NCBI RefSeq assembly: GCF_008065095.1
Contig: NZ_CP042911.1
Span: forward strand, 2,100,001 to 2,132,000
From: Gemmata obscuriglobus
GTDB lineage: Bacteria; Planctomycetota; Planctomycetia; Gemmatales; Gemmataceae
Reading direction: 5' to 3'
Length of the DNA: 32,000 nucleotides
The notes beneath the pieces are model-generated. The model searched no databases and was not told the origin of the DNA. It saw only the letters and a program-made list of their open reading frames with translations. The translations under genes were made by a program, and so were the position numbers. Positions 2,835 to 31,040 of the stretch are shown here, piece after piece (the stretch's first letter is position 1; each line of letters begins with the position of its first letter).

Positions 2835-3689
2835 TTAAGAGTTAACCGGCACTTGCGTTTCGTCCTTCGCCGCTCCCGCTGCGGCGATCTCCTCCGCCGT
2901 ATCGAGGATCAGCCGCACCGCTTCGCACACCCGCTCCAGCACGGCGCAACACGCCGACACCACGTCCAACCGCTCCGAGAGTGCGTACCCGGCGATGTAC
3001 CGCCACGAGCCGCCCAAATCAGCATCTTCTTCGCTTCCGAGCAGCCGCAACAGAACGGCCGCACCCAACTGCGCCACGGTTTCCGAGCGCCAGTGTTGGC
3101 CCTTTTCCTTCAGGTTTCCGGCCCTGTCGTCGGCGGCATGGACGAGTTCGTGCGCCCACGTCGAGAGGTTCTTGACGCCCAGGCCGATGAGTTGCTTCCG
3201 GCGGTAGAAGCCGTGTCGCCCGCTCCCCTCGCCCTCGAAGACTTCGACCCGCAGCCCCCACTTTCGAGCGACTTCCACCAGCGGGAGCGACTCGACCCAG
3301 CGCTCCGCTTCCGGGTCGGCCGGGGGGAGCGGTGCGCCGTCGGTCTGCCCGATTCCGAACACCGGAATTCCACGAAAGCCGATCAGGATTTCTTTGTCTT
3401 GGCCCGTCTCCTCGTCCTTCACGTTTTTGATGATCGGTGCCAGGATCGTGAGCGATTTTTCGCCCTTCTTCACGAACCGCCCGACGCCCTGCCACTGTCG
3501 GAAGCCCCGTGCGTCGGTGTGCCCGGCCAGCGCCACGAGCAGTTGGTTGCGCCACGACCACTTGCGGCACGGGATGTCGTCGCCCGTCCTGACGAACAGT
3601 GTGGCGAGCGGAGCGGGTAACGCCGTCGGGTTCTCAAACGCCTTCACGATGCCCGCCGCCGCCTCTTCCGCACTGCCGAAGTACTTCAT
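2835..3689 (-). CDS. ardC: ArdC-like antirestriction protein (N-terminal ssDNA-binding ArdC-N domain plus C-terminal HExxH metalloprotease-like domain)
   Basis: 'ALAGHTDARGFRQWQGVGRFVKKGEKSLTILAPI' matches the ArdC-N/DUF1738 pattern. 'WAHELVHAADD' is the HExxH motif. I place the start at the ATG at 3689-3687 (MKYFGSAEEAAAGIV), preceded by GAGGGA; the longer track ORF (to 3932) has a non-protein-like N-terminus. Confidence 0.85.
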   Translation of the reverse strand: MKYFGSAEEAAAGIVKAFENPTALPAPLATLFVRTGDDIPCRKWSWRNQLLVALAGHTDARGFRQWQGVGRFVKKGEKSLTILAPIIKNVKDEETGQDKEILIGFRGIPVFGIGQTDGAPLPPADPEAERWVESLPLVEVARKWGLRVEVFEGEGSGRHGFYRRKQLIGLGVKNLSTWAHELVHAADDRAGNLKEKGQHWRSETVAQLGAAVLLRLLGSEEDADLGGSWRYIAGYALSERLDVVSACCAVLERVCEAVRLILDTAEEIAAAGAAKDETQVPVNS

Positions 3690-3755
3690 GGCCCGTCCCT
3701 CGTGGTCACGCCGCACACCGAACCGCCGGGTGCGAACTGCCTTCGAGGGATGGGG

Positions 3756-3768
3756 GTGTATGGTCACC
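3756..3768 (-). promoter_or_regulatory. Conserved upstream motif GGTGACCATACAC, copy 2
   Basis: The plus strand reads gtgtatggtcacc, 66 nt upstream of the ardC-like ATG at 3689. Confidence 0.6.
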
Positions 3769-3812
3769 CAGAACGGGGGAGGGTTGTTAACGTGCCGGGC
3801 GGAGATCAGCGG

Positions 3813-3825
3813 GCGTATGGTCACG
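3813..3825 (-). promoter_or_regulatory. Conserved upstream motif CGTGACCATACGC, copy 3 (variant)
   Basis: The plus strand reads gcgtatggtcacg, 123 nt upstream of the ardC-like ATG. It is a second tandem copy in the same orientation. Confidence 0.5.
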
Positions 3826-4141
3826 GCGCAAGGAAGAGGTCGAGCGTGCGGAGAACCACGAGGAAGACACGAGGCCATTGTCGCTTGAAGGGCCGGGATC
3901 AGGTTCCGTTCGGTGGAAACGGCTGTGGGCACCCGTCAGGCGCTCGACCGCAAAGTTCATTTGCTGACGAGACGGTTGGGCCGAGTCTGCTTCTCTCACG
4001 ACTTGAATCCGCTCCACTGAGATGGCTTAATGCAGACCGGATCGGAGGAGAGGCAGGCCGTTCGGAGCCAACCGACTCCGCCATCCCATGAGCGCCGGCT
4101 GTGATCCGGCGTCGGATCAAACACTTAACTTGGAGACGACG

Positions 4142-9698: not shown

Positions 9699-10610
9699 GT
9701 GAAGAATTCGGCGAATAAGGTTTTCGGCACCACTCAGGTCGGAGAGGGAGAGGCAGCGCTCTTCACCACCTTCCTCGACGCCCACGACTTCGCTTCGGGA
9801 ACCCGGAAAGCGTTCACCCTCGACATCAAGAAGTTCGCCGTATGGTTCGCTGAAGTGAACCGGGAACCGTTCCGGGTCGGTCGGGTGACCATGAGGGACG
9901 TGACCGACTTCCGGGAGCACCTCCGCCGGGAAAAGGGTCAGGCCGTTTCCACCGTCAACCGGGCACTCGTGGCCGTACGGCGGTACTTCGGGTGGCTCGC
10001 CGAGCAGGGGCACGTTGCCTCGAACCCGGCGGTGGGCGTGAAGGAACTCCGGCGGGTGCAACTTGCGCCGAAGGGACTCCAACGGGATCAGGTGCGAAAA
10101 CTGTTGCGGGAGGTCGAGCTTCGCCAGGACGTGCGGGCCTCGGCGGTCTTTCACCTGCTTCTGTACACCGGCTGTCGGATCGGCGATCTCGTGAATCTTA
10201 AACTTCAAGACCTTATGCTGACCGAGCGGTCGGGAACAGTGGTATTCCGGCTCGGCAAGGGAGGGAAGCAACGGTCGGTTCCCCTCCCGCTGCCCGCCCG
10301 CAAGTCCATCCAGGCTTACCTCGACACCCGACCGCCGGTGAAGGAGCAGATTGTTTTCATCGGGGAACGTGGGCCGCTGACGGACCGGGGCGTCCGGGCG
10401 ATGTGCGACAAGTACAGCGCCTTGATCGGCGTGAAGCTGCACCCACACCTGTTTCGGCACACGATGGCGCACCAGTTCCTTGCGGACAACGAGAACGACC
10501 TCGTCGCCCTGGCCCAACTGCTCGGGCACGAGAACCTGAACACCACGGCCCGGTACGCCCGCCGGAGCCACGACCAACTGGCCGATGCCGCCGACAAGCT
10601 GACGTATTGA
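9699..10610 (+). CDS. Tyrosine recombinase / phage-type integrase (XerC/D-like)
   Basis: GTG start. It has an N-terminal SAM-like domain and the catalytic residues in '[11 protein letters not shown]', '[12 protein letters not shown]' and '[13 protein letters not shown]' (R..HxxR..H..Y). Confidence 0.92.
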
Positions 10611-11242: not shown

Positions 11243-12553
11243 TCAAAAATCGTCAGCAGGATTGTCGGGAAAGAAGAATGCCCGGAGGTGGAAATCAAGC
11301 CGGGCGGCTGACAGTTGCTTTGCTGCTTGCTCTTGCCACTCCGTGTGCTTTTGGAGCCGCTCCGCAAGCATCATTCCTTCGCCCGGCAGTTTTGGCTGCT
11401 GGACTAAGTCATTGAATAGTCGCATCACGAACCAGCGGTTGCTACCGTAACCGAGAGCGTACACGCAGGACAAGATTTCCGACCGCACCTCTACGTCACC
11501 GGATGCGTCGTAAAGCCTTCGGCACTGCTTCCCGATGGTATCCATGAAGTCGAAGCCGTGGTTCATGAAAGGATCAGCGACGACCTCAGCAAAGGTGCGA
11601 ATAATGGTGTGAAACGTGTCGGGGTAACGAGCCTCCATAAGCGCAACAGCTTGCACAGGAAGCTTCATCACGGCATCAAAAATCACCTTCTTGTCGTCAA
11701 TGTTTGATACCATCAGATCATGCAGCCGATCCGTTAATCCCGTCGCATCCGTCGTCTTTGCCAGCGAGGCAATCACGGCGTTCATCTGCTCGACAGCAGA
11801 CGCCGTGGTCCTCTGCCCTGAGACTGTCATCCACGCATCCTGCATTTCGGCAACGGTGGCATACCGTTGCTCCCGCTCCGGTCGGGTCGCCCGCCGAATG
11901 ACGGAGCGTAAGTGGGCGGGAATTTTGTGGTGGTTAACGTCTAAGTAAGCGATCGGTCCGACATAAAGAATGTAAATAATCACCCCTAGCGAATATACGT
12001 CCGCTCGAACGTCTGTATCCTTTGCATCAGCAAACTGCTCAGGCGCAGAGAACATCAGGGAACCCATTTTGTCCCCCGTCATCGTTTTTCGGGTTGTCTC
12101 TGCGTCGAGTTGCCGACCTAAGCCGAAATCGGAAACCACGCAATCTTCGTCCGTGTTCATCAAGACGTTTTGTGGTTTCAGATCACGGTGGATCACGCCA
12201 TGCTCGTGGGCGTGTCGGACGCCAGCGAGAATCCGGTTGAAGATCGGGACTGCCCTGCTGGGCTGAAACGAGATATCCCAAAGTTCTTTTTCAAGGGATG
12301 TCCGGTAAAGCGGCATGACGAAGTAGTAGGGCGCACTGCTGATGTGCGAACCCACCACCTTCACGACGTGTTCATTGTCCAAGAGGGACAGCAAACGCAC
12401 CTCCCGAACGAAGCGTTCGACTTCGCTCGGTGTGGCTCCGGGCAAAAGCTTCTTTTTGGCGTAATCTTGTCCCGTTGTCGAGTCGGTGCAAAGATACACC
12501 TGCCCAAACCCGCCTTCCCCGATCAGGCTTACGTCGAGATACCGCTGGCTCAT
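11243..12553 (-). CDS. Hanks-type Ser/Thr protein kinase with a ~220-aa alpha-helical C-terminal domain
   Basis: G-loop 'GEGGFGQVY', 'YAKKKL', catalytic loop 'HRDLKPQNVL', 'SDFGLG' and 'FSAPEQ' are all present. The C-terminal half has no recognisable domain. GC is visibly lower than in the flanking modules. Confidence 0.9.
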   Translation of the reverse strand: MSQRYLDVSLIGEGGFGQVYLCTDSTTGQDYAKKKLLPGATPSEVERFVREVRLLSLLDNEHVVKVVGSHISSAPYYFVMPLYRTSLEKELWDISFQPSRAVPIFNRILAGVRHAHEHGVIHRDLKPQNVLMNTDEDCVVSDFGLGRQLDAETTRKTMTGDKMGSLMFSAPEQFADAKDTDVRADVYSLGVIIYILYVGPIAYLDVNHHKIPAHLRSVIRRATRPEREQRYATVAEMQDAWMTVSGQRTTASAVEQMNAVIASLAKTTDATGLTDRLHDLMVSNIDDKKVIFDAVMKLPVQAVALMEARYPDTFHTIIRTFAEVVADPFMNHGFDFMDTIGKQCRRLYDASGDVEVRSEILSCVYALGYGSNRWFVMRLFNDLVQQPKLPGEGMMLAERLQKHTEWQEQAAKQLSAARLDFHLRAFFFPDNPADDF

Positions 12554-13167: not shown

Positions 13168-15939
13168 ATGGATCGCAAGCAACTCGCCGCCGAGGTCACC
13201 CGCATCCTCCGGTCCGCTCGTGCCCCGATGTTGTCGAAAGACATCCTCGACCGAGTGCGGGCCAAACCGGGCGGCGGGGTCGTCACCAAGTCCGAGGTCG
13301 CCGCCGTCCTGTCCGGCGACTTGACCGGGCAAGGGTCGGCGACAAGGGACGAGGAGTTCCGCTGGCGCTACACGGGGCTTGACGCCATTTGGGACACACC
13401 GGCTCCGGCTTCGCCGGGCTTAACGCCAAATTCTGTTCTGCCCGTTCCACGCCCGCCGATAGCACGGCCGGTGCGAACCTGCCCGCCGGTCCTTTCGCCC
13501 GACGACCTGGCCTCGGTGGAGGCCGCTGTGCGTGAGGAGATCGCCGCCGCCAAAGAGGACGTTCGTTCGTCGTGGCTCGACATCGACGGGATCGAACACC
13601 TCGCCGACGCACCGGGCGGGTTCATCTACCGTCTGGTTCTCTCTACGCCGGTCCATCTGACGCCCGATCAAGCGGTGACTTTCCAAACTCGGAATCCCAG
13701 AGAGACGATTTCGGCGGTGGTAGTGAAGTCGGACGACGAGGGCTTGGTGGTCGTGTGCCAGAATCCGCTCCCGGCGGACGCCAAGCTATTGCAGATGACG
13801 TTCGACCCGACGTTCATCCTGCGTGCGCTGGAAGGCTTCGTGTCCGAGTTGGCCCCGACCGGCGGCCAGATCGCCCGGCTCGTGCTGACCAAGACGGCCC
13901 CCGCACCGTCCCCGGTACAACCCCGCCCGCACCCGAAGCTGAACGAGGAGCAGTGTCTTGCCGTCGAGGAGATGGCGGCGACCCCGCTCCACCTCCTCTG
14001 GGGTCCGCCCGGAACGGGGAAGACGACCACGCTCGGCGCAGCCGTCGCCCGGTGGCTCAGGCAAGGTCAGCGGGTGTTGGTCGTCTCGACCTCGAACGCC
14101 GCCGTGGACGTGGCGCTGAAGGCGGTGCTGTCCCGGCTGCAGCCTGAAGAAAAGGACCGTGTGTTGCGGCTCGGCTCCTCACTCGATCCGGTCGTCCGGG
14201 AAGTAACCCTCGGCGGGAAGCTCGCCGCCCAGAACCCGAAAGCCGCCCGGCTCGTCGCCAAAGCCCAGAACCGTCTCGCCGACATTCAGGAGCAGCTTCG
14301 GAGCAGACCGTTAGACCCGGATCGGCTGCACGCCCTCCACAACGAGGCCCGTGAGTACGAGACACGGATCAGTGAGTTCCAGAAGCAAGCGGACGAAGCC
14401 GGCCCGGCGCTGGCGGATAGCGTACTTGTTACCGGCTGCACCCTGGCGAAGATGGTGCTCGACAAAACCCTTCGGGCGCAGACGTTCGACGTGGTCGTGG
14501 TGGACGAGGCTTCGATGGTGTCGCTGTTGTACGCCGTCGCCGCCTCGATGCTGGCCGGGGCGCATCTGGTTTACGCCGGTGACCCGCAGCAGCTACCGCC
14601 CATCGTGCAGGCCGACGGAAGAAACGCCGCACGGTGGTTCGGCCAGAACGTCTACGACTGGTTCGGGATCGCCGCCGACGGGAGTGCGCCGACCCGGCTC
14701 AGTCTGCTGCGCACGCAATACCGGATGACGACCGAGATCGGCGGCGTGGTCAGCCGACTGAGCTACAACGACCTCCTCCGACACGGGCGTGGGGCCACCG
14801 GCCCGACGGTCGAGTTCATCGACGTGGGGGGCGAGTGGGAGACACGCCCCTACTCCATTTCAGAGAAGTCCTACTACCACCTCGCCGCAGTTCCGATCAT
14901 TCACGCCCTGATCGAGCGGATTCCCGAAGACGAACTCCTGCTCCTGTCCCCGTTCCGCCCGCAGCGGTCGCTCCTCTCGGCGCTCGCATTCGACCTGCGG
15001 GAGCGGGGCGGGCGGAAGGCCACCGCCAGCACGATCCACCGGGCGCAGGGGTCGGAAGCGAAGGCGGTGGTCGTGGACCTGACCACGCACTCGCCCGACA
15101 AGCTCGCCGCCTTCTTCCGGGACGAGCACTGCGACAAGCTGTTCAACGTGGCGATCAGCCGGGCCAGGGACCGCCTGGTCGTCATCGGCAGTAAAGCGAT
15201 GCTCCGAGAACTGGCGAAGGCGATGCCGTTCTGGAAGCGTGTCGTGTCCGAGTTCGGGACCGGGATCACCCTGTTCAACGCCGCCGACGTGATCGAAAAG
15301 TTAACCTGGGCGGACAGCCCAGGCGCTCTCCCGGCGACCGAAGCCAAACACCTGCCCGCCCTCTACAGCCACGATCCGGCTTTGGGTGCGGCGAAGCCCG
15401 GCGTCGAGGCGCTGAAGCGGTTGACGGCGACACGGAAGCTGTTCGTCACCCACGACGTCGAACCGAAGATCGGGCAGAACGACATCATCGTCCGAACCGG
15501 CTCGAACTGTCCGCCGGTTTTCGCCGGAGGCGGGTACGTGTGCGTGCCGCTTGGGGGGCGGTGGGTGGCCGTGAACTCGCCGAACGTGACACGGGTGCTG
15601 TGGCGGATCGGCTTCTCACACCTGGCCGACGACGAGGTGGACCCGAACCAGGCCCGCCGGTTCTACTGCCCGGAGTGCCCGAACGGGGACTTGGTGTTGC
15701 GCCAGAGCCGGGGCGAGGGGTGGTTCCTGGTCTGCGTCAACCCTCAGGTGCGGGAGTGCTCGCACCGGAAACGGCTGTCGCTGGAGGACGCCAGGCTCAA
15801 GGTCCGGCTTCAGGGGATGCGGTGCCCGGCGGGGCACCCGCTCACCGCCCGGTCGAGCGGGCACGGCTTCTTCCTGGGCTGCGAGAACTACCCTCGTTGC
15901 GATTTCGCCCAGGGGTTGTCGATCCTGGAAGGCGTCTGA
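13168..15939 (+). CDS. SF1 helicase (Upf1/Dna2-like, AAA_11/AAA_12) with an N-terminal winged-helix-like domain and two C-terminal topoisomerase-type C4 zinc ribbons
   Basis: Motif I is 'LLWGPPGTGKTTT', motif II 'FDVVVVDEASMV' and motif III 'VYAGDPQQLPPIV'. Then come 'LRTQYRMTTEI', motif V 'TIHRAQGSEAKAVVVDL' and motif VI 'FNVAISRARDRLVVIG'. The C-terminus has 'FYCPECPNGDLVLRQSRGEGWFLVCVN...C' and 'MRCPAGHPLTARSSGHGFFLGCENYPRCDF'. Confidence 0.92.
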   Translation: MDRKQLAAEVTRILRSARAPMLSKDILDRVRAKPGGGVVTKSEVAAVLSGDLTGQGSATRDEEFRWRYTGLDAIWDTPAPASPGLTPNSVLPVPRPPIARPVRTCPPVLSPDDLASVEAAVREEIAAAKEDVRSSWLDIDGIEHLADAPGGFIYRLVLSTPVHLTPDQAVTFQTRNPRETISAVVVKSDDEGLVVVCQNPLPADAKLLQMTFDPTFILRALEGFVSELAPTGGQIARLVLTKTAPAPSPVQPRPHPKLNEEQCLAVEEMAATPLHLLWGPPGTGKTTTLGAAVARWLRQGQRVLVVSTSNAAVDVALKAVLSRLQPEEKDRVLRLGSSLDPVVREVTLGGKLAAQNPKAARLVAKAQNRLADIQEQLRSRPLDPDRLHALHNEAREYETRISEFQKQADEAGPALADSVLVTGCTLAKMVLDKTLRAQTFDVVVVDEASMVSLLYAVAASMLAGAHLVYAGDPQQLPPIVQADGRNAARWFGQNVYDWFGIAADGSAPTRLSLLRTQYRMTTEIGGVVSRLSYNDLLRHGRGATGPTVEFIDVGGEWETRPYSISEKSYYHLAAVPIIHALIERIPEDELLLLSPFRPQRSLLSALAFDLRERGGRKATASTIHRAQGSEAKAVVVDLTTHSPDKLAAFFRDEHCDKLFNVAISRARDRLVVIGSKAMLRELAKAMPFWKRVVSEFGTGITLFNAADVIEKLTWADSPGALPATEAKHLPALYSHDPALGAAKPGVEALKRLTATRKLFVTHDVEPKIGQNDIIVRTGSNCPPVFAGGGYVCVPLGGRWVAVNSPNVTRVLWRIGFSHLADDEVDPNQARRFYCPECPNGDLVLRQSRGEGWFLVCVNPQVRECSHRKRLSLEDARLKVRLQGMRCPAGHPLTARSSGHGFFLGCENYPRCDFAQGLSILEGV

Positions 15940-16227: not shown

Positions 16228-16845
16228 CTAGGCGATAATCTTGTAGCAGGTTCGTTTCCAGTAGGAACCCAAGTCAACGAATTCGTCGGGAACGTACTCC
16301 AACTCCGGGTTCCCCAGGTTCTCCTTGAAGCCGTAAACGACGACGTATTTCCCCATACGTCGCACGGCCTTAATGACGGGAAGATAGTCGGCGTCAGACG
16401 TGAACAAGCCAACTATCTGGTAGTTGTCCAGTACGGCGTCTTCAATCATCCGAACGGCGAGAGCTATATCTGCCCCTTTCGGCTTCTCGATGACTCCTGC
16501 GTCGTTCGCCTTCGACCGTCGCCGATCCCTCAACCCTTTGTCTTCCTTGATGATGTACGGCTCGAAATGTAACGACCTGAGATAAACGTGGGCATCGTGT
16601 AGTACGTTGTCGTTTCCAGTGAAGGCGGTGAAGTAGACCTTTCTGTCGGGGTGAAGGTTGTTAAGGTATTCCGAATCCCAAAAAAAGTGGCAGTCGTCTC
16701 GAACCTTCACGTCCTGGCCTTGCGAGTTGCCAACCCGCTGAACCTTACCCAACGTCGTGAAGCCATCGAGTTTCTTGGCTTTGCCTTCGTTGCGGATGTA
16801 GTGGCTTTCGCCGTCAACGTAGACGTAGAATTTCTTTCCCATCAT
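16228..16845 (-). CDS. NYN/LabA-like (PIN-like) ribonuclease domain protein
   Basis: 'KKFYVYVDGESHY' and 'KGADIALAVRMIEDAVLDNYQIVGLFTSDADYLPVIKAVRRMGKYVVVYGF' match the NYN/LabA layout (DG.. then KGaDiaL..D.. then SgDsDf.P....GK.V). I place the start at the ATG at 16845, which overlaps the stop of the upstream gene (ATGA at 16845-16842). The longer track ORF has a junk N-terminus. Confidence 0.85.
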   Translation of the reverse strand: MMGKKFYVYVDGESHYIRNEGKAKKLDGFTTLGKVQRVGNSQGQDVKVRDDCHFFWDSEYLNNLHPDRKVYFTAFTGNDNVLHDAHVYLRSLHFEPYIIKEDKGLRDRRRSKANDAGVIEKPKGADIALAVRMIEDAVLDNYQIVGLFTSDADYLPVIKAVRRMGKYVVVYGFKENLGNPELEYVPDEFVDLGSYWKRTCYKIIA

Positions 16846-17516
16846 GAGCATGTGTTTACCCCAGCGGTTTCGGTTTGTTCCTGCGTTTGGTCCATGCATT
16901 GCTTGTCGGAAACTTCTGGGAACACCCTTGTGACGTTCTTGCCGTCGATGTTCACAACGGCGATGTTCGACATTGATCGGCTTGCGAACTCCGGGGCGTA
17001 GACACTGTGCCAGAATTGCCGAGGATTCGCTGCCCATTCCTTCCTTCTGTCCTTGAAGTTGTGGTTGTAGCTTCCTTTGCCCACCCATCGGCATTCCCAC
17101 CAACTCGATTCTTGCGGCAAGGTTGTGATGATGACGTAGGGCACGGTGCTGCCCATGTGGTCCCGCCAGTCGATGTAGCCGTCCACGTCCTTTTCGATGA
17201 CCCGGTAGTCAGACGAATTCGGGCTTTCGTAGTCCAAGATGAACATCGGCAGAAGGCTGTCCGTGTAGCCGATCACGTCCGGCTTGAACTTGACCCCAGC
17301 GCCTTCGTTCAGGGCCACGTCCAACCCGACATGCGACACACCTTCTACCCCCCAGGCGAACCGGGCCAGCAAGCCGAACACAATCGGATGCGTAAGCGCC
17401 TTCCCGGTGGCCGTGTACTCGAACGAATTGAAGAAGCCTTCGGGCAGGGGCGCAATCCCATCTTTCAGGAATTGCGCAAGCCGACCGGCCAGGTCTTCGA
17501 CGGCAAGAATCGTCAC
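16842..17516 (-). CDS. Hypothetical protein (224 aa as annotated; probably longer, see the next feature), weak PD-(D/E)xK-like signature
   Basis: GTG start at 17516 preceded by GGGGA. 'KFKPDVIGYTDSLLPMFILDYESPNSSDYRVIEKDV' loosely resembles a restriction-endonuclease-fold core, with low confidence. It is translationally coupled to the NYN gene. Confidence 0.7.
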   Translation of the reverse strand: MTILAVEDLAGRLAQFLKDGIAPLPEGFFNSFEYTATGKALTHPIVFGLLARFAWGVEGVSHVGLDVALNEGAGVKFKPDVIGYTDSLLPMFILDYESPNSSDYRVIEKDVDGYIDWRDHMGSTVPYVIITTLPQESSWWECRWVGKGSYNHNFKDRRKEWAANPRQFWHSVYAPEFASRSMSNIAVVNIDGKNVTRVFPEVSDKQCMDQTQEQTETAGVNTCS

Positions 17517-17700
17517 GGTCGTTCCCCTGAGTCCCGGCAGCCCACAAGCACTCTACTGAGACTCCAGACAGTTCTCCTTCCAGGACGATGTGCGTCGGGG
17601 ACGAGTCCATCCGGTCGTCTTCAAACAGGGTGACGTGAAGTTGCCCCCTCTTGCCACAACTGACGAGGAGCAGAAAGTGAACAGGACGGTACTCAGGCAT
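17517..17700 (-). other. Upstream reading frame, coupled to the preceding gene, that would fuse to the 224-aa ORF after a 1-nt change
   Basis: The ATG at 17700 overlaps the stop of the 263-aa gene (ATGCCTGA). It reads MPEYRPVHFLLLVSCGKRGQLHVTLFEDDRMDSSPTHIVLEGELSGVSVECLWAAGTQG and then becomes Arg-rich junk. Removing one C from the C4 run at 17524-17527 gives ...TQGTTVTILAVEDLAG..., in frame with 16842-17516. Confidence 0.4.
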
Positions 17701-18484
17701 TCACTTTCAGTTTCGCCATCAGTTCGTCAACGCTTTCCCAACTTTGGTTTCTGGGGTGGTCCTTCAAGTACAGCGTTGGTGTCTGCCAGAGGAAGGTGAG
17801 TTCCGGGTTTGCGACGAGGTAGACGGAGTGTCGCCCGAACAGCGGGTTGAAGAACTCGATGTCCTTCTTCCAGTTGTCGTCCCTGGCCGTCTCGTGATGG
17901 CTGTGGCCGATCATCGGCGGGTGGTAGTGGTCGGCGTCGAAAGTATCGGCGCACGACGAAGCGGAATTCGGTTGGAACGCATCGCCTAGCCGGTTGCGGC
18001 GGGTCGTCTTCGCCAGTCGGAGATCGGCGGGAAGTGCGTTCCAGAGAGCGGCAGCAGTCCGGTGAACTTGTTCGACTTGAGCAAGGTAGAACAGCCACGT
18101 CCGGCCACACAGCCGGGGGCTGGTGAAGCCCGCCAACCAGGAGCCGTTCCAGTCGCCGGGGTTCTTCTTCTCCGCTCGAATTTGGTGGGCACAAGTACAG
18201 AGCGTCAGACAACCGCCCTGGAAGTTCGGCCCCGATCCGTACTGTTGGTGCTGGCCCCGGTCGTCGGGGTGGACCGAAATCATTTTGTACGAACGAACCG
18301 TCCCCAGAACCCCGCCGATGCGGTCGTTCAGGCCGGGCTTCCGAAGGTCCAGATTTCTGAACAACTCGCCTTCGGTCGGGAACGGCTGGACCGCCTGGGC
18401 GTCCGGCACGCACGACTGGCGTTCGCCGCAAATGGGCTTCTTGGCCGGGGGACAAACCCGCTTCGGAGGTACAGCACCAGTCAT
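17693..18484 (-). CDS. Hypothetical Cys/His-rich protein (263 aa), family not recognised
   Basis: The ATG is preceded by GAGGGGG. Conspicuous motifs are 'QQYGSGPNFQGGCLTLCTCAHQIRAEKK' and 'DADHYHPPMIGHSHHETARDDNW'. It is the first gene of the coupled operon. Confidence 0.75.
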   Translation of the reverse strand: MTGAVPPKRVCPPAKKPICGERQSCVPDAQAVQPFPTEGELFRNLDLRKPGLNDRIGGVLGTVRSYKMISVHPDDRGQHQQYGSGPNFQGGCLTLCTCAHQIRAEKKNPGDWNGSWLAGFTSPRLCGRTWLFYLAQVEQVHRTAAALWNALPADLRLAKTTRRNRLGDAFQPNSASSCADTFDADHYHPPMIGHSHHETARDDNWKKDIEFFNPLFGRHSVYLVANPELTFLWQTPTLYLKDHPRNQSWESVDELMAKLKVNA

Positions 18485-18535
18485 CGGTTTCCCCCTCTTG
18501 TCGGGTCTTTTCTTCAGGCCGGATATTACCAGAAA

Positions 18536-19261: not shown

Positions 19262-20083
19262 GTGATGGTGTGTGCAATCTGCGGCGGGATCGTGTTGCGG
19301 CGTCGGGTGATCCTGGCGAACGTACTCGCGTTCGCGTGGCTGGTGGTGATCGCGCTGAACCCCACCGACCCGTTCACCGCCGGCTGTCAGTTGTCGTTCC
19401 TGTGCGTGTTCGTGCTTCTCTTCGGTGCGGCGCGATGGCTCAAGCCGCGCGACCTCACGCCCATCGAACAACTCATTGATGAGACCCGCGGGCCGACCGA
19501 GAAGGCCGCCCGCGCGGCGCTGCGGTGGGCGTGGAACCTGTTCGCGGTGGGGTTCATCCTGACGGCGGTGAACGTGCCGCTGGTGCTGGCGTGGCAGAAC
19601 GTCGCCTCGCCGGTCGCCGTCCTCATCGGGCCGCCGCTGGTCGTGCTGACCGGTGTTGCGCTCATTGCCGGTTTTGTGCTCCTGGTGCTGTCGCCGCTGG
19701 CCGTGTGGGCCGCGTGGCCGTTCGCGCGCGTGACGGAAGCGTGTCTGGCGGGGTGCGAGTGGATCGTTCACCTGGCGGACCGCGTTCCGGGCGGCCACGT
19801 GTACGCCCCCGGGCCGCCGATGTGGTGGCTCGTCGGGTTCTACGTACTCGTCGCGGGGCTGGTGCTGCTCGACGGGCGCCGCTCGCGGCACCTCTTCGTC
19901 GCCCTCGTCGTGTTCTCGACCTTCGGCGCGGCTCTCGGGCTGTCGCCGCACACGTCCGACGAGATGCGGGTGACGTTCCTGGCGGTGGGTCACGGCGGGT
20001 GCGTGCAGTCGCCGTCACTTTTGGCAACTGCTGGGCATTATCGGGAGTGTCGGGAAAAATGCAATCGGAGCAGCGGGGCTTAA
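19262..20083 (+). pseudogene. comEC: Internal fragment of comEC/rec2 (DNA internalisation channel), truncated at both ends
   Basis: It contains the polytopic Competence-domain sequence 'LNPTDPFTAGCQLSFLCVFVLLFG...'. It ends in 'MRVTFLAVGHGGC', the first strand of the ComEC metallo-beta-lactamase domain ('vtflDVGqGda'). Homology stops around 19995-20030 and GC drops there. The N-terminal DUF4131 part and the rest of the lactamase domain are absent. Confidence 0.8.
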
Positions 20084-25384: not shown

Positions 25385-27058
25385 TCACGCTTCCTTGCCG
25401 GGGGTCCAATTTGTGGCCTTTAACCCGAGCTTCGCCTTAAACGGCCCCCACAGATCGGCGTAGCCGGTGACCAACCCGTACTTTTTCTTCTTAGCGTCGT
25501 TCTCGACGATCTTCTCGGCCTCCAGTGCCCGGAGAGCATCGTACAGCTTGGCCGAGGACAGGTTCAGCTTGTCGGCTTTGAAACTCCGAAGCATGGCGGC
25601 ACCCGACTCCGGCCCTGACGATTCGAGGTGTCGGACGACGTGGGCCATTGCGTTCGCTAGGTTCTCTTCGCTGAGTGCGGCAGCGGCATCCTCACCCGCT
25701 CCGAGGTACCGGTACACACCGTCGTCGAATTCGAGCGTGTGCGGCGGGGTGTGGTCGATACGGCCACCGATTTTGACACGTCGCTGGGTGGTATCCTGAC
25801 CGGTTCCAGGGGCCTTGACAACTTCAAAATCGATCAGAACGTCCGGGACCGCCAGGATGTCGGTGCTACCGCTGGCCCGTCCTTCGTGATTCGCATGGTG
25901 AATGAACCCGACGGTATGACCGGTTTTGTGGGACCACTCGGAAAAGGGGTCCAAAAGTCCGCTGATACAGTTTGCGTCCCATTCCCAGTTTGACTTCAAG
26001 CCGGGCTTTCGCCCGAAAGAACGGCGAAGCGAATCGATCAGGAAAAAGCCGGGCTGGGTCATCCGCTTGGCGATTTGGTCCAGGAAGTCGGTGGTGACGT
26101 GGGGCGGGAGTTTGTACGCCTTGTTGTCCACCTGGCGGTTGCTGACCCTAAACCACTTTTTTAGGTCGGTCCAGTCCCGGCCTTCCATGACCGGGTTCAG
26201 AATGCAGTGCTTCAGGTACGCCGTATCGTTTTCGTAGTCCACGTAATAAAAGGGGAACGGGTCGGCGGCTTCTCCCCAGAACGACCCGGTGTACACGAGG
26301 TCGATAAACGACTGGATGATACACGTCGTTTTCCCCTTTTTGGCGGGGCCGGGAATGACCATCAGCTTCCCTTGCGGGATACGCCGGGGGACGAGGTACT
26401 TGTACTCGGAGGACGTTTCGGCGAAGAAGGTGTCCAGGTCGCACAGGTCGGCGTCTTCGGAACCGGCCAGGTTACGCTCCCGGTTCTCGATCATCGTCTT
26501 GAGGAACTGGGTTTGCTCCTCGTAACTGACCTTTTTGTTGTTGCGGGCGTCCATAAACCGCAACAGGTCCACTTTGCTCTGCTGCTCGAAAACGAAGTGT
26601 CGAAGGTGGTCGTCGATTTGTTCGGGGACGGGGTGGTCGGTGTGATACTCCAGGAGTGTATTTAGCTCGCCGAGGTGCCACAGCTTTACGGCCTCGTCCT
26701 TGCCGTCAAGCTCTTGAGTCAGGACGTTTTCGAGGTACGCTTTGGTCGGGAGCTTTTTGTACTTCTCGACGTGACGGGCCAGGGTCTTAAAAATCAGTTT
26801 ATGGTGCTCGGCCACCCAGTGCTCGGTGGTCAGCTTGTCGTGATATTTGACAGCCAGGTCGGTCTCGGTCAGCAGCGTGCCGAGAATCTCCCGCAGGAAG
26901 CTCTCGGTACCGGTGATGGTGATGTCGAGCGGCTGGCGGTCGGGGTCTTGCTTCGCCAGTTCTTCGATCAGCTTCCGCTTCTCTTCTTCCGTCCTTTTCT
27001 TAATTTCCGCTTGTGCTGTTTGGTCCATTGAACGATATATTCCATAAGACGGTTCCAT
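25385..27058 (-). CDS. Replicative helicase-like ATPase (DnaB-N-like helical N-terminus plus RecA-fold AAA_25/RepA-type core)
   Basis: Walker A is 'VIPGPAKKGKTT' and Walker B-like is 'GFFLIDSLRRSFG', followed by 'VGFIHHANHEGRASGSTD'. The N-terminus 'FLREILGTLLTETDLAVKYHDKLTTEHWVAEHHKLIFKTLARHV' resembles DnaB N-domains. I place the start at the ATG at 27058 (or 27028), because the track start at 27118 would put a 15-bp terminator hairpin inside the ORF. Confidence 0.85.
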   Translation of the reverse strand: MEPSYGIYRSMDQTAQAEIKKRTEEEKRKLIEELAKQDPDRQPLDITITGTESFLREILGTLLTETDLAVKYHDKLTTEHWVAEHHKLIFKTLARHVEKYKKLPTKAYLENVLTQELDGKDEAVKLWHLGELNTLLEYHTDHPVPEQIDDHLRHFVFEQQSKVDLLRFMDARNNKKVSYEEQTQFLKTMIENRERNLAGSEDADLCDLDTFFAETSSEYKYLVPRRIPQGKLMVIPGPAKKGKTTCIIQSFIDLVYTGSFWGEAADPFPFYYVDYENDTAYLKHCILNPVMEGRDWTDLKKWFRVSNRQVDNKAYKLPPHVTTDFLDQIAKRMTQPGFFLIDSLRRSFGRKPGLKSNWEWDANCISGLLDPFSEWSHKTGHTVGFIHHANHEGRASGSTDILAVPDVLIDFEVVKAPGTGQDTTQRRVKIGGRIDHTPPHTLEFDDGVYRYLGAGEDAAAALSEENLANAMAHVVRHLESSGPESGAAMLRSFKADKLNLSSAKLYDALRALEAEKIVENDAKKKKYGLVTGYADLWGPFKAKLGLKATNWTPGKEA

Positions 27059-27065
27059 TGAATTT

Positions 27066-27105
27066 GACCACGGGCCGGTTCGTAACCGGCCCGTGGTCTT
27101 TTTTT
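27066..27105 (+). terminator. Canonical intrinsic terminator in plus orientation (15-bp stem plus T7)
   Basis: GACCACGGGCCGGTT-cgt-AACCGGCCCGTGGTC followed by TTTTTTT. Confidence 0.75.
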
Positions 27106-27139
27106 GTACCAGCAACAAGCCGGTACAAGCTATTGGTGG

Positions 27140-29501: not shown

Positions 29502-31040
29502 GTGAAATCCGCTCCAACACTCGTCGAGATCGACCGCCTTTTGGCCGCAAACCGGTTCCGCCACTTCTGCGAACTCGTTTGGCCTGCCGTCCGCCCAGAA
29601 CCATTTGTCGGCGGATACTTCGTAGACGCCTTATGCGAGCACCTGGAAGCCGTCCACAAAGGTCAGATCAAGCGGCTAGCTCTCGTTTGCCCCGTCCGGC
29701 ACGGCAAAAGCGTATTCACCTCCGTACTGTGGCCCGCTTGGTGCTGGATCACCGACCCGTCGATACGGTTCCTTTCGGCATCCGCCACACAAGACCTTGT
29801 TCTTCGTGACAGCGACAAGACCCGGGACATCATCAGCCACACGGTCTTTCAAAAGCACTTCGCCGGTCTCTTCAATCTCTCCGAAAAGCAAGACTCGAAG
29901 GGGTGGTACAAGAACGATCGGGGCGGCGAACGAAAGGCCGTCGGTGCCGGCACCCGATCCACAGGTCTCGATGCCGAATATCTGATCGTCGACGACCTTC
30001 TGGACTACGACAAGGCCCGACACGAAGGCGAGCGAAAAGCCGTTCTGGACTTCTACGCCAACACGTTGACCAACCGGTTGGTGTACGCTGCGAACAAGGA
30101 CCGTATCGTCCTATGCGGGCACCGGGTTCACGAAGACGACGTATTCAACCACGTCTGGACCACGTTCGGCAACGACGGCAGTTGGACGTATTTGTACCTC
30201 CCGGCAGAAGCGAATCCGGACCTGAGTAACAGCTACCACAACGCTCTCGGTTGGAAGGACACCCGGAAGGTCGGCCAGTTGCTCCACCCCGGCGTTGTGC
30301 CGCTGGCAAAGATCAATGAGGCGAAGAAGGGAGGGAAGCACAAGTACCACTGTCTTTACAACCAGGATGTTACTCCGGCGGACGGTGACATCTTCTCCGC
30401 TTCGATGTTCCGGTACTTCACGGCGGCAGACGGCTTTTACAATCTGGCCGGGAAGCAGGTTGATGCGAAAGCGGCTTGGCGGTTCGTGGCGGTTGATACT
30501 GCCGTCAGCACCGAGAGCACTGCCGACTATTCAGTGATTCAGGTCTGGGACTGCATCGGTGGTCACCTCGTCCTAGTCCATCAGATACGAAAACGACTCG
30601 ACGGCACGAAACTGGTGCCGGCCATCGCCAGCGTCCACCGAACCTACAACCCTCAGTTCGTGTGCGTGGAGGAGCAGTTCGTCGGGCGGTTCGTCATCGA
30701 TCAGTTGCGGGCCGAGAGTGTACCGGTCAAGCGGTTCAACGCAAAAGGTCACGGTGACAAAGAGACGAGGGCGGTAGCGGCACAGATCAGAATGGAAGCC
30801 GGGAGTGTGTGGTTCCCGGCAGATCAGGACTGGGTGTCGGACCTTCAAAAAGAACTCCTAGCGTTCCCGGCGAGCACCCACGACGACCAAGTGGATGCGT
30901 TGTCGATGGCGTGCATTTTGGCGGACAAGTACACCGGGAAGATCGAGATCGAACTGACCCCGGAGGAAGCCGAAGCAAAAGCAAAAAAGGACGCTGAGGG
31001 GCGTTTCCAAAAGATGCTTTGGCAGGGTGCTCCGTTCTGA
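29502..31040 (+). CDS. terL: Phage terminase large subunit
   Basis: GTG start. Walker A is 'LVCPVRHGKSVF' and Walker B 'YLIVDDLLDYD'. The nuclease domain shows 'FVAVDTAVSTESTADYSVIQVW' and 'HDDQVDALSMA'. Confidence 0.92.
   Translation: MKSAPTLVEIDRLLAANRFRHFCELVWPAVRPEPFVGGYFVDALCEHLEAVHKGQIKRLALVCPVRHGKSVFTSVLWPAWCWITDPSIRFLSASATQDLVLRDSDKTRDIISHTVFQKHFAGLFNLSEKQDSKGWYKNDRGGERKAVGAGTRSTGLDAEYLIVDDLLDYDKARHEGERKAVLDFYANTLTNRLVYAANKDRIVLCGHRVHEDDVFNHVWTTFGNDGSWTYLYLPAEANPDLSNSYHNALGWKDTRKVGQLLHPGVVPLAKINEAKKGGKHKYHCLYNQDVTPADGDIFSASMFRYFTAADGFYNLAGKQVDAKAAWRFVAVDTAVSTESTADYSVIQVWDCIGGHLVLVHQIRKRLDGTKLVPAIASVHRTYNPQFVCVEEQFVGRFVIDQLRAESVPVKRFNAKGHGDKETRAVAAQIRMEAGSVWFPADQDWVSDLQKELLAFPASTHDDQVDALSMACILADKYTGKIEIELTPEEAEAKAKKDAEGRFQKMLWQGAPF

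Follow-up and report, generated by a model that had tools for sequence, protein, structure and literature searches.

A case for accretion: three neighbouring genes for predicted nucleic-acid-targeting proteins in a lower-GC island of Gemmata obscuriglobus

Three genes lie close together on the minus strand of Gemmata obscuriglobus contig NZ_CP042911.1 (assembly GCF_008065095.1), within positions 2,100,001 to 2,132,000. This whole stretch of 32,000 nucleotides is called the window here, and is numbered from its first letter. The genes are labelled A (263 amino acids, Nmad2-like), B (224 amino acids, nuclease-fold) and C (205 amino acids, NYN), and are found in a lower guanine-cytosine (GC) island next to a prophage. 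A preliminary description, made from the letters of the window, took them for a tightly coupled operon and a candidate defence or toxin module. But do three genes that stand so close together necessarily work together? We favour, as the rather probable reading, an accretion of three genes, each mobile on its own and each a single-gene function aimed at nucleic acids, and not a three-gene system. The evidence that carries this reading comes from other genomes: the trio does not appear to be a dedicated module, since A, B and C are not syntenic elsewhere. This article describes the layout of the genes and the families to which they are assigned, then turns to the company kept by their relatives and to the explanations that compete for the locus.

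Layout of the three genes

The preliminary description had the genes chained by overlapping stop and start codons, which holds for B and C but not for A and B. The TGA that stops B (16844-16842) lies over the ATG that starts C (16845-16843), and together they form an “ATGA” at 16845-16842. In GenBank, gene C starts instead at the ATG at 16851 and is 207 amino acids long. The other proposed link, ATGCCTGA at 17700-17693, is also present, and its ATG (17700-17698) overlaps the last codons and the stop of A. This ATG however opens a homolog-less and unannotated open reading frame (ORF) rather than B, and A and B, which are 176 nucleotides apart, are therefore not overlap-coupled.

The ORF whose 5' part lies in this spacer is 163 amino acids long and runs through B, out of B's frame; it corresponds to the N-terminal piece of the split protein in the preliminary description. 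In the part of it at 17554-17700 (minus strand), GC by codon position is 0.67/0.37/0.63, and the codon log-odds are positive for the first ~50-60 codons, which on both counts look coding. No homolog of it was found in Pfam, NCBIfam, PADLOC, PHROGs or the 130 loci fetched, the protein collection lacks the exact 163-residue protein, and in GenBank the space between A and B is without annotation. The ORF may be the remnant of a displaced gene, or else a tiny gene, but not part of B. The spacer also holds one copy (17640-17653) of a 14-nucleotide motif, CAAGAGGGGG[A/C]AAC on the minus strand, the other copy of which is found just upstream of A's ATG (18487-18500). This pair could be a ribosome-binding-type element or a product of chance; it is the only informative outcome of the Rfam, tRNA and repeat scans of the locus.

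Gene B had been described as split, with a repaired length of 285 amino acids, but it reads as an intact gene. Its 20 homologs, which are 195-221 amino acids long, all align from residue 1, encoded by the GTG at 17516 (“MT-ILAVEDLAG…” against “MA--ISVEDLAG…”). The frame is closed upstream by a TAG at 17555-17553, this GTG is the first in-frame start, and a Shine-Dalgarno-like AGGGGAA stands ahead of it. The in-frame stop and the 20-homolog alignment together rule out the split form. What is peculiar to Gemmata is the other end of the protein. The last 22 amino acids (residues 203-224, 16842-16910), SDKQCMDQTQEQTETAGVNTCS, have no counterpart in any of the 20 homologs, are unique to Gemmata, and are modelled with a low predicted local distance difference test score (pLDDT). 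It is this tail that runs on to the TGA overlapping C's ATG, and thus creates the ATGA overlap.

Assignment of the three proteins

The Nmad domains, which are said to go back to Iyer et al. in 2013, include the family to which gene A is assigned as a divergent member, Nmad2 (PF18753); the preliminary description had been unable to place the 263-residue protein in any family. Taken alone, A matches the Pfam profile at E=4e-4 (20.4 bits, under the gathering score of 26.1, over profile positions 12-73 of 200). At the level of its family, 26 of the 29 aligned relatives match Pfam Nmad2 and no other family, with a best E of 7.6e-9, and the UniRef label for the protein is Nmad-domain-containing. When the A-family profile is aligned by hhalign with WP_047174762.1, the Nmad2 protein of the E. 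coli system DS-4, the probability is 79% (E=1.6e-5) over 84 columns, including the PN…TLxTC…IR core.

The conserved residues of A include the core GSGPNFQGGxLTLCTCxHQxR as well as GHSH. In the first motif, G83, P86, N87, Q89, G90, L95, C98 and R103 are invariant in the family and C96 is nearly so, while in the second the invariant residues are Y187, P190, H194 and H196; the two motifs to which the preliminary description drew attention are thus present and hold family-invariant residues. Like other Nmad2 proteins, including that of DS-4, A has the core G-x-x-PN-x-x-G-x-x-TL-x-TC-x-x-x-IR, with LGD and His-rich HxH/SHH segments later on. It differs from them in being longer, with an extra Cys-containing N-terminus. 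The 263-residue start is backed by its relatives, among which the N-terminus is conserved. The AlphaFold2 model of A has a pLDDT of 87.7 and a predicted template modelling score of 0.83. No significant match to it was found by Foldseek in PDB and BFVD, where nothing is better than E=0.04, nor was a relative of A found by sequence among the solved structures of PDB. The best, non-significant Foldseek matches are PUA-like modified-base readers (THYN1/EVE, YTH, ASCH; E 0.04-1), and this PUA-like resemblance of the model offers a weak lead only. The protein is predicted to be metal-binding (Cys/His), and to bind or process modified nucleotides or DNA.

DS-4 (“NTTI”) is a validated E. coli defence system with five components, namely a thymidylate-synthase-like protein, a dNMP kinase, a 5-hmdU DNA kinase, a TIR protein and Nmad2 (DefensePredictor, PMC13092281, supplementary tables). 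Unlike DS-4, the clade of A comes without thymidylate-synthase, kinase or TIR genes. These supplements are the only place in the literature where a mention of Nmad2 was found, and they give no biochemical function for it.

More often, Nmad2 is accompanied by Nmad3 (PF18754). In 44 of the 62 loci whose A homolog is less than 55% identical to Gemmata A, Nmad3 lies downstream of Nmad2 on the same strand, and the distance from the stop of one to the start of the other is usually within ~36 nucleotides. This two-gene module is widespread in Planctomycetota and Chloroflexota and is also seen in other phyla (L002-L005, L013-L070; e.g., L013:5923-7454), with a PRiA4_ORF3-domain gene just upstream in seven loci and HNH or NOV_C neighbours now and then. 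A is homologous to its first gene (32-50% identity), and has all the invariant residues in common with it. The gene after A is however unrelated to Nmad3, and there is no Nmad3 beside close relatives of A: it follows in none of the seven loci of the Gemmataceae clade (identity to A of 55% or more), nor was it found in the window by tblastn (best E=0.35). A belongs to a “solo” Gemmataceae clade, without the usual Nmad3 partner. Paired and solo forms of Nmad2 make a natural comparison for working out the role of the domain. Two other relationships were considered and ruled out by hhalign: that B is an Nmad3 that has diverged and stands in for the missing partner (probability 0.4%), and that A is itself related to Nmad3 (0.2%). 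A and Nmad3 seemed to group together in an ORF graph, but this was due to ORFs that span both genes.

Going by its predicted structure, B is a PD-(D/E)xK restriction-endonuclease-fold protein, and it belongs to a rare unannotated family. None of four profile libraries (Pfam, NCBIfam, PADLOC and PHROGs) matches it, and no relative was found in PDB by sequence. The AlphaFold2 model (pLDDT 86.2) displays an alpha-beta-beta-beta-alpha-beta core (H42-56, E62-65, E81-84, E90-97, H105-121, E127-132). The top 12 Foldseek matches are all PD-(D/E)xK nucleases, the best probability being 0.99 and the lowest E 2.7e-3, in agreement with the weak nuclease-fold resemblance noted in the preliminary description. 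They include the DrdV nuclease domain (7lvv/7lo5, probability 0.95-0.99, E=3e-3), BstEII (9ibq), R2 endonuclease, NucS/EndoMS, McrC and Can2.

Across 21 sequences, the invariant residues of the B family are D66, P79-D80, D95-Y-E97-SPN, K109-D110 and T132-L-P134. On the model, P79-D80 starts strand 2, D95-x-E97 is carried by strand 3, and K109-D110 by the next helix, positions that fit a putative active site. B resembles the PD-(D/E)xK nucleases in its core fold, in the “PD” that starts strand 2 and in the acidic residues on strand 3. It departs from them in the position of its invariant lysine, which stands on the following helix and outside the classical (D/E)xK position, so that the site reads PD…DxE…K, and also in having no sequence-level match and no conserved methyltransferase partner. 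Indeed, neither a methyltransferase nor a modified-base reader recurs as a partner across the heterogeneous neighbourhoods of the B family. By profile search, this family amounts to 212 clusters in 1.84 billion (1.84e9) representatives, and most members are ~200 amino acids long. With its clear invariant site and its one EVE fusion, it could be added to the catalogues of nuclease and defence candidates.

The fusion in question is P0184 (342 amino acids), in which an EVE domain (PF01878; 24.7 bits, cut-off 23) precedes a B-family domain at 145-338; it is a single case among the 10 longest B-family members scanned. EVE-nuclease fusions reportedly mark type IV systems, a point credited to Bell, Wolf and Koonin in 2020. 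P0184 is alike in its architecture and hints, by analogy, that the B family can act as the effector of modification-dependent restriction, but the B of the window has no reader domain, and to cast A in that part is conjecture. Two other extended forms are seen in the family. A subfamily of ~310 amino acids (P0258, P0271, P0272, P0278, P0286) has a conserved C-terminal extension of ~100 amino acids (“…EYWxKEQAAWG…”) with no Pfam match, and the C-terminal extension of P0193 looks VWA-like by eye.

Gene C had been recognized from the start as a NYN ribonuclease (RNase), and it is classed here among the stand-alone NYN/LabA-like RNases of PIN type, its acidic site being complete. It matches PF01936 at E=2e-13 (51.3 bits, cut-off 24.2), and its acidic residues D11, E13, D126, D136, D151 and D153, together with S150, are invariant in 23 relatives. 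Conserved aspartates, a single domain and a length of ~200 amino acids are features that it shares with other stand-alone NYN/LabA-like proteins (PF01936), HEC-09 among them. In PADLOC, C matches HEC-09 (E=3e-7, 28 bits) and a generic NYN model (E=3e-5), both weakly, which is too little to place it in a validated defence family. HEC-09 itself was not protective against the phages used in its original test (bioRxiv 10.1101/2024.01.29.577857), and “NYND,” a single NYN gene tested in another screen, carries no DS number (PMC13092281).

Neighbourhoods in other genomes and competing readings

Loci holding relatives were collected for A (66 from genomes and nine from contigs), for B (39 from metagenomes, one viral and 11 from contigs) and for C (six), and A, B and C were all compared by tblastn with the whole collection (121+ loci). 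A and B stand together in one of the ~120 A- or B-family loci, a contig of 1,024 base pairs (L078) whose B is 77% identical. Across the same ~75 A, 51 B and six C loci, C does not once adjoin A or B, and the full trio occurs in no other locus searched. An A-like tblastn match near a NYN gene in L126/L127 proved to be due to chance, the ORF being unrelated (hhalign probability 0.3%).

Close relatives of each gene, at 77-87% identity, stand alone among unrelated neighbours, which differ from one locus to the next. At 87% identity, A is followed by an unrelated gene; at 78%, it has a kinase on one side and a WGR protein on the other, and the A of Fimbriiglobus ruber adjoins uvrB. B adjoins a methyltransferase at 85% identity, a DDE transposase, SAVED and BrxR at 77%, and a membrane protein with a transposase at 73%, while other B loci lie between purH and an IS200-like transposase/metK, or in restriction-modification or McrBC-like islands. 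C is near an HNH gene at 87% identity, between hemA and nfeD at 79%, and, at 45%, in an integrase/type I restriction-modification element with a helix-turn-helix gene. The gene that follows the closest relative of A (L116:1923-2468, plus strand) begins 15 nucleotides after it and encodes a protein of 181 amino acids, MKYWCANFEQ…, which by eye is faintly EVE/ASCH-like; its identification as an EVE domain was rejected, as there is no Pfam match and a BLASTP comparison with the EVE domain is not significant.

If the locus is an accretion, each protein would act alone and none would require the others. A, as a solo-clade Nmad2, would bind or process modified nucleotides or DNA; B would be a Mg2+-dependent DNA endonuclease of PD-(D/E)xK type; and C would be a metal-dependent RNase of the NYN (PIN-like) kind. 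The likely arena would be conflict with phages or mobile elements, and a role in defence or conflict is plausible for the individual genes, whose enzymatic activities are those predicted from their families and folds. The packing would fit a single transcript in Gemmata, certainly for B and C and probably for A, so that the three genes are probably co-transcribed. How old is this arrangement? Because the tail of B that makes the ATGA is found in Gemmata only, a recent junction fits better than an old coupled operon. The same is suggested by the A-B spacer, which is not conserved in L078, and by overall GC, which falls stepwise from A (0.61) to B (0.57) and C (0.52). A tail that reads on to the TGA overlapping C is also what a recent deletion or junction would be expected to leave behind. 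Several points nevertheless weigh against accretion. The co-directional tight packing, 4-nucleotide overlap included, has the look of true operons; the A-x-B order recurs in one independent contig (L078), which makes some linkage of A and B possible; most relatives are on short metagenome contigs, so that the power to see neighbours is limited; and the sigma-70-type scan of the locus, which may not suit Planctomycetes, found no promoter or terminator.

The recurrence in L078 is also the starting point for the view that A and B make up a type-IV-like module of two genes for modification-sensing restriction, in which Nmad2 would read or process modified DNA, B would cut this DNA and fill the position of the lost Nmad3, and C would be a bystander. 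The loss of Nmad3 in the Gemmataceae clade, the EVE fusion of P0184, the fact that the best structural matches of A, though weak, are all PUA-like readers, and the presence of Nmad2 in the validated DS-4 (PMC13092281) all speak for it. Yet among the seven close relatives of A with at least 800 nucleotides downstream, B is found in L078 only, those examined gene by gene having other neighbours, and among the close relatives of B with upstream sequence, A is likewise found in L078 only. The spacer of L078 is unrelated to that of Gemmata and carries a different ORF, of 114 amino acids; B is unrelated to Nmad3; the Foldseek matches of A are not significant; and the EVE fusion is seen once. We therefore regard such a module as unlikely, and the fuller proposal, in which Nmad2 as a PUA-like reader or processor and the adjacent B make up a new modification-dependent restriction module of the Nmad3-less Gemmataceae clade, as decidedly doubtful. 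If true, it would provide the first mechanistic role for Nmad2. Ordinary cellular roles in RNA turnover, DNA repair or nucleotide metabolism, with an incidental position in the island, are distinctly unlikely as well. Relatives do occur amid housekeeping genes (A by uvrB, C between hemA and nfeD, B by purH and metK), and A is absent from phage collections. The distribution is however patchy, with B in so few clusters, the low GC is as in acquired DNA, relatives are often near transposases or restriction-modification, McrBC-like or SAVED/BrxR genes, and no neighbour is conserved in such a way as to indicate a pathway.

It is very unlikely that A, B and C make up one integrated defence or abortive-infection system, with A as sensor or modifier, B as DNase and C as RNase. 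The tight co-directional packing with its B/C overlap, the island next to a prophage and the weak match of C to the PADLOC candidate HEC-09 are all consistent with it, but the trio recurs in no other locus searched, C is never found with A or B, the overlap hangs on the Gemmata-specific tail of B, and stand-alone NYN candidates were unprotective in E. coli screens. With PADLOC-DB v2, where neither A nor B is covered by a model, no system has all its components matched; A and B are without a match, and C is limited to its two weak ones. The preliminary description had itself named a lack of synteny in other genomes as what would speak against a dedicated module, and this is what the loci reveal, with A and B together once and C with neither. 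A toxin-antitoxin-like pair, in which C would be a NYN/PIN-like toxin and the upstream overlapping gene its antitoxin, fits the geometry, since the upstream gene overlaps that of a PIN-like RNase by four nucleotides. It is nonetheless the most improbable of the explanations: relatives of C (45-87% identity) have neither B nor any conserved upstream partner, B, a conserved PD-(D/E)xK protein of enzyme-like character, stands alone in ~50 loci, and the overlap is made by a tail that is not conserved. The trio should not, then, be catalogued as a new defence system. Its components are of known kinds (Nmad2, PD-(D/E)xK and NYN), and what is new, the unannotated nuclease family and the partner-less Nmad2 clade, is modest.

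The surrounding island

Positions of the three genes, of the spacer and of the main features around them are collected in Table 1. The island context given in the preliminary description has held up, its integrase, kinase, superfamily 1 (SF1) helicase, truncated ComEC and prophage genes all being found. Phage origin was considered for A and B, and rejected. A has no match among 50,697 phage records (INPHARED) or in IMG/VR, a single IMG/VR viral contig matches B, and PHROGs has no match for either; from this absence or near absence in phage collections, both appear to be cellular island genes rather than phage genes.

Table 1. Features of the window (positions in the window; 100% match refers to the GenBank protein named).
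Feature	Position	Strand	Remarks
ArdC-like gene	2835-3932		
DUF6878 gene	within window		
RuvB-like ATPase	within window		
Tyrosine integrase	9699-10610		
Ser/Thr kinase	11243-12553		
SF1 helicase (AAA_11/AAA_12)	13168-15939	+	923 amino acids; C-terminal topoisomerase (Top1)-type C4 zinc ribbon; directly beside the trio
Gene C	16228-16845	-	205 amino acids; gene adjoining GobsT_18260; QEG27072.1, 100% match
Gene B	16842-17516	-	224 amino acids; GTG start; reads as intact; GobsT_18260 / QEG27073, 100% match
A-B spacer	17517-17692	-	176 nucleotides; holds the 5' part of the unsupported 163-amino-acid ORF (ATG 17700)
Gene A	17693-18484	-	263 amino acids; ATG start; GobsT_18270 / QEG27074, 100% match
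5'-truncated ComEC “Competence” ORF	19262-20083	+	profile positions 84-268 of 270; host gene at the island edge
DnaB-like helicase	25385-27118		in lower-GC prophage-like block, 20-32 kb
Large terminase	29502-31040		in lower-GC prophage-like block, 20-32 kb

The trio lies in an island of lower GC that is taken to be horizontally acquired, between the SF1 helicase gene and the truncated comEC, next to the prophage. GC across the trio locus is 0.54-0.58, as against ~0.66-0.67 in the flanking helicase gene, which at this host-level GC is probably outside the acquired block.

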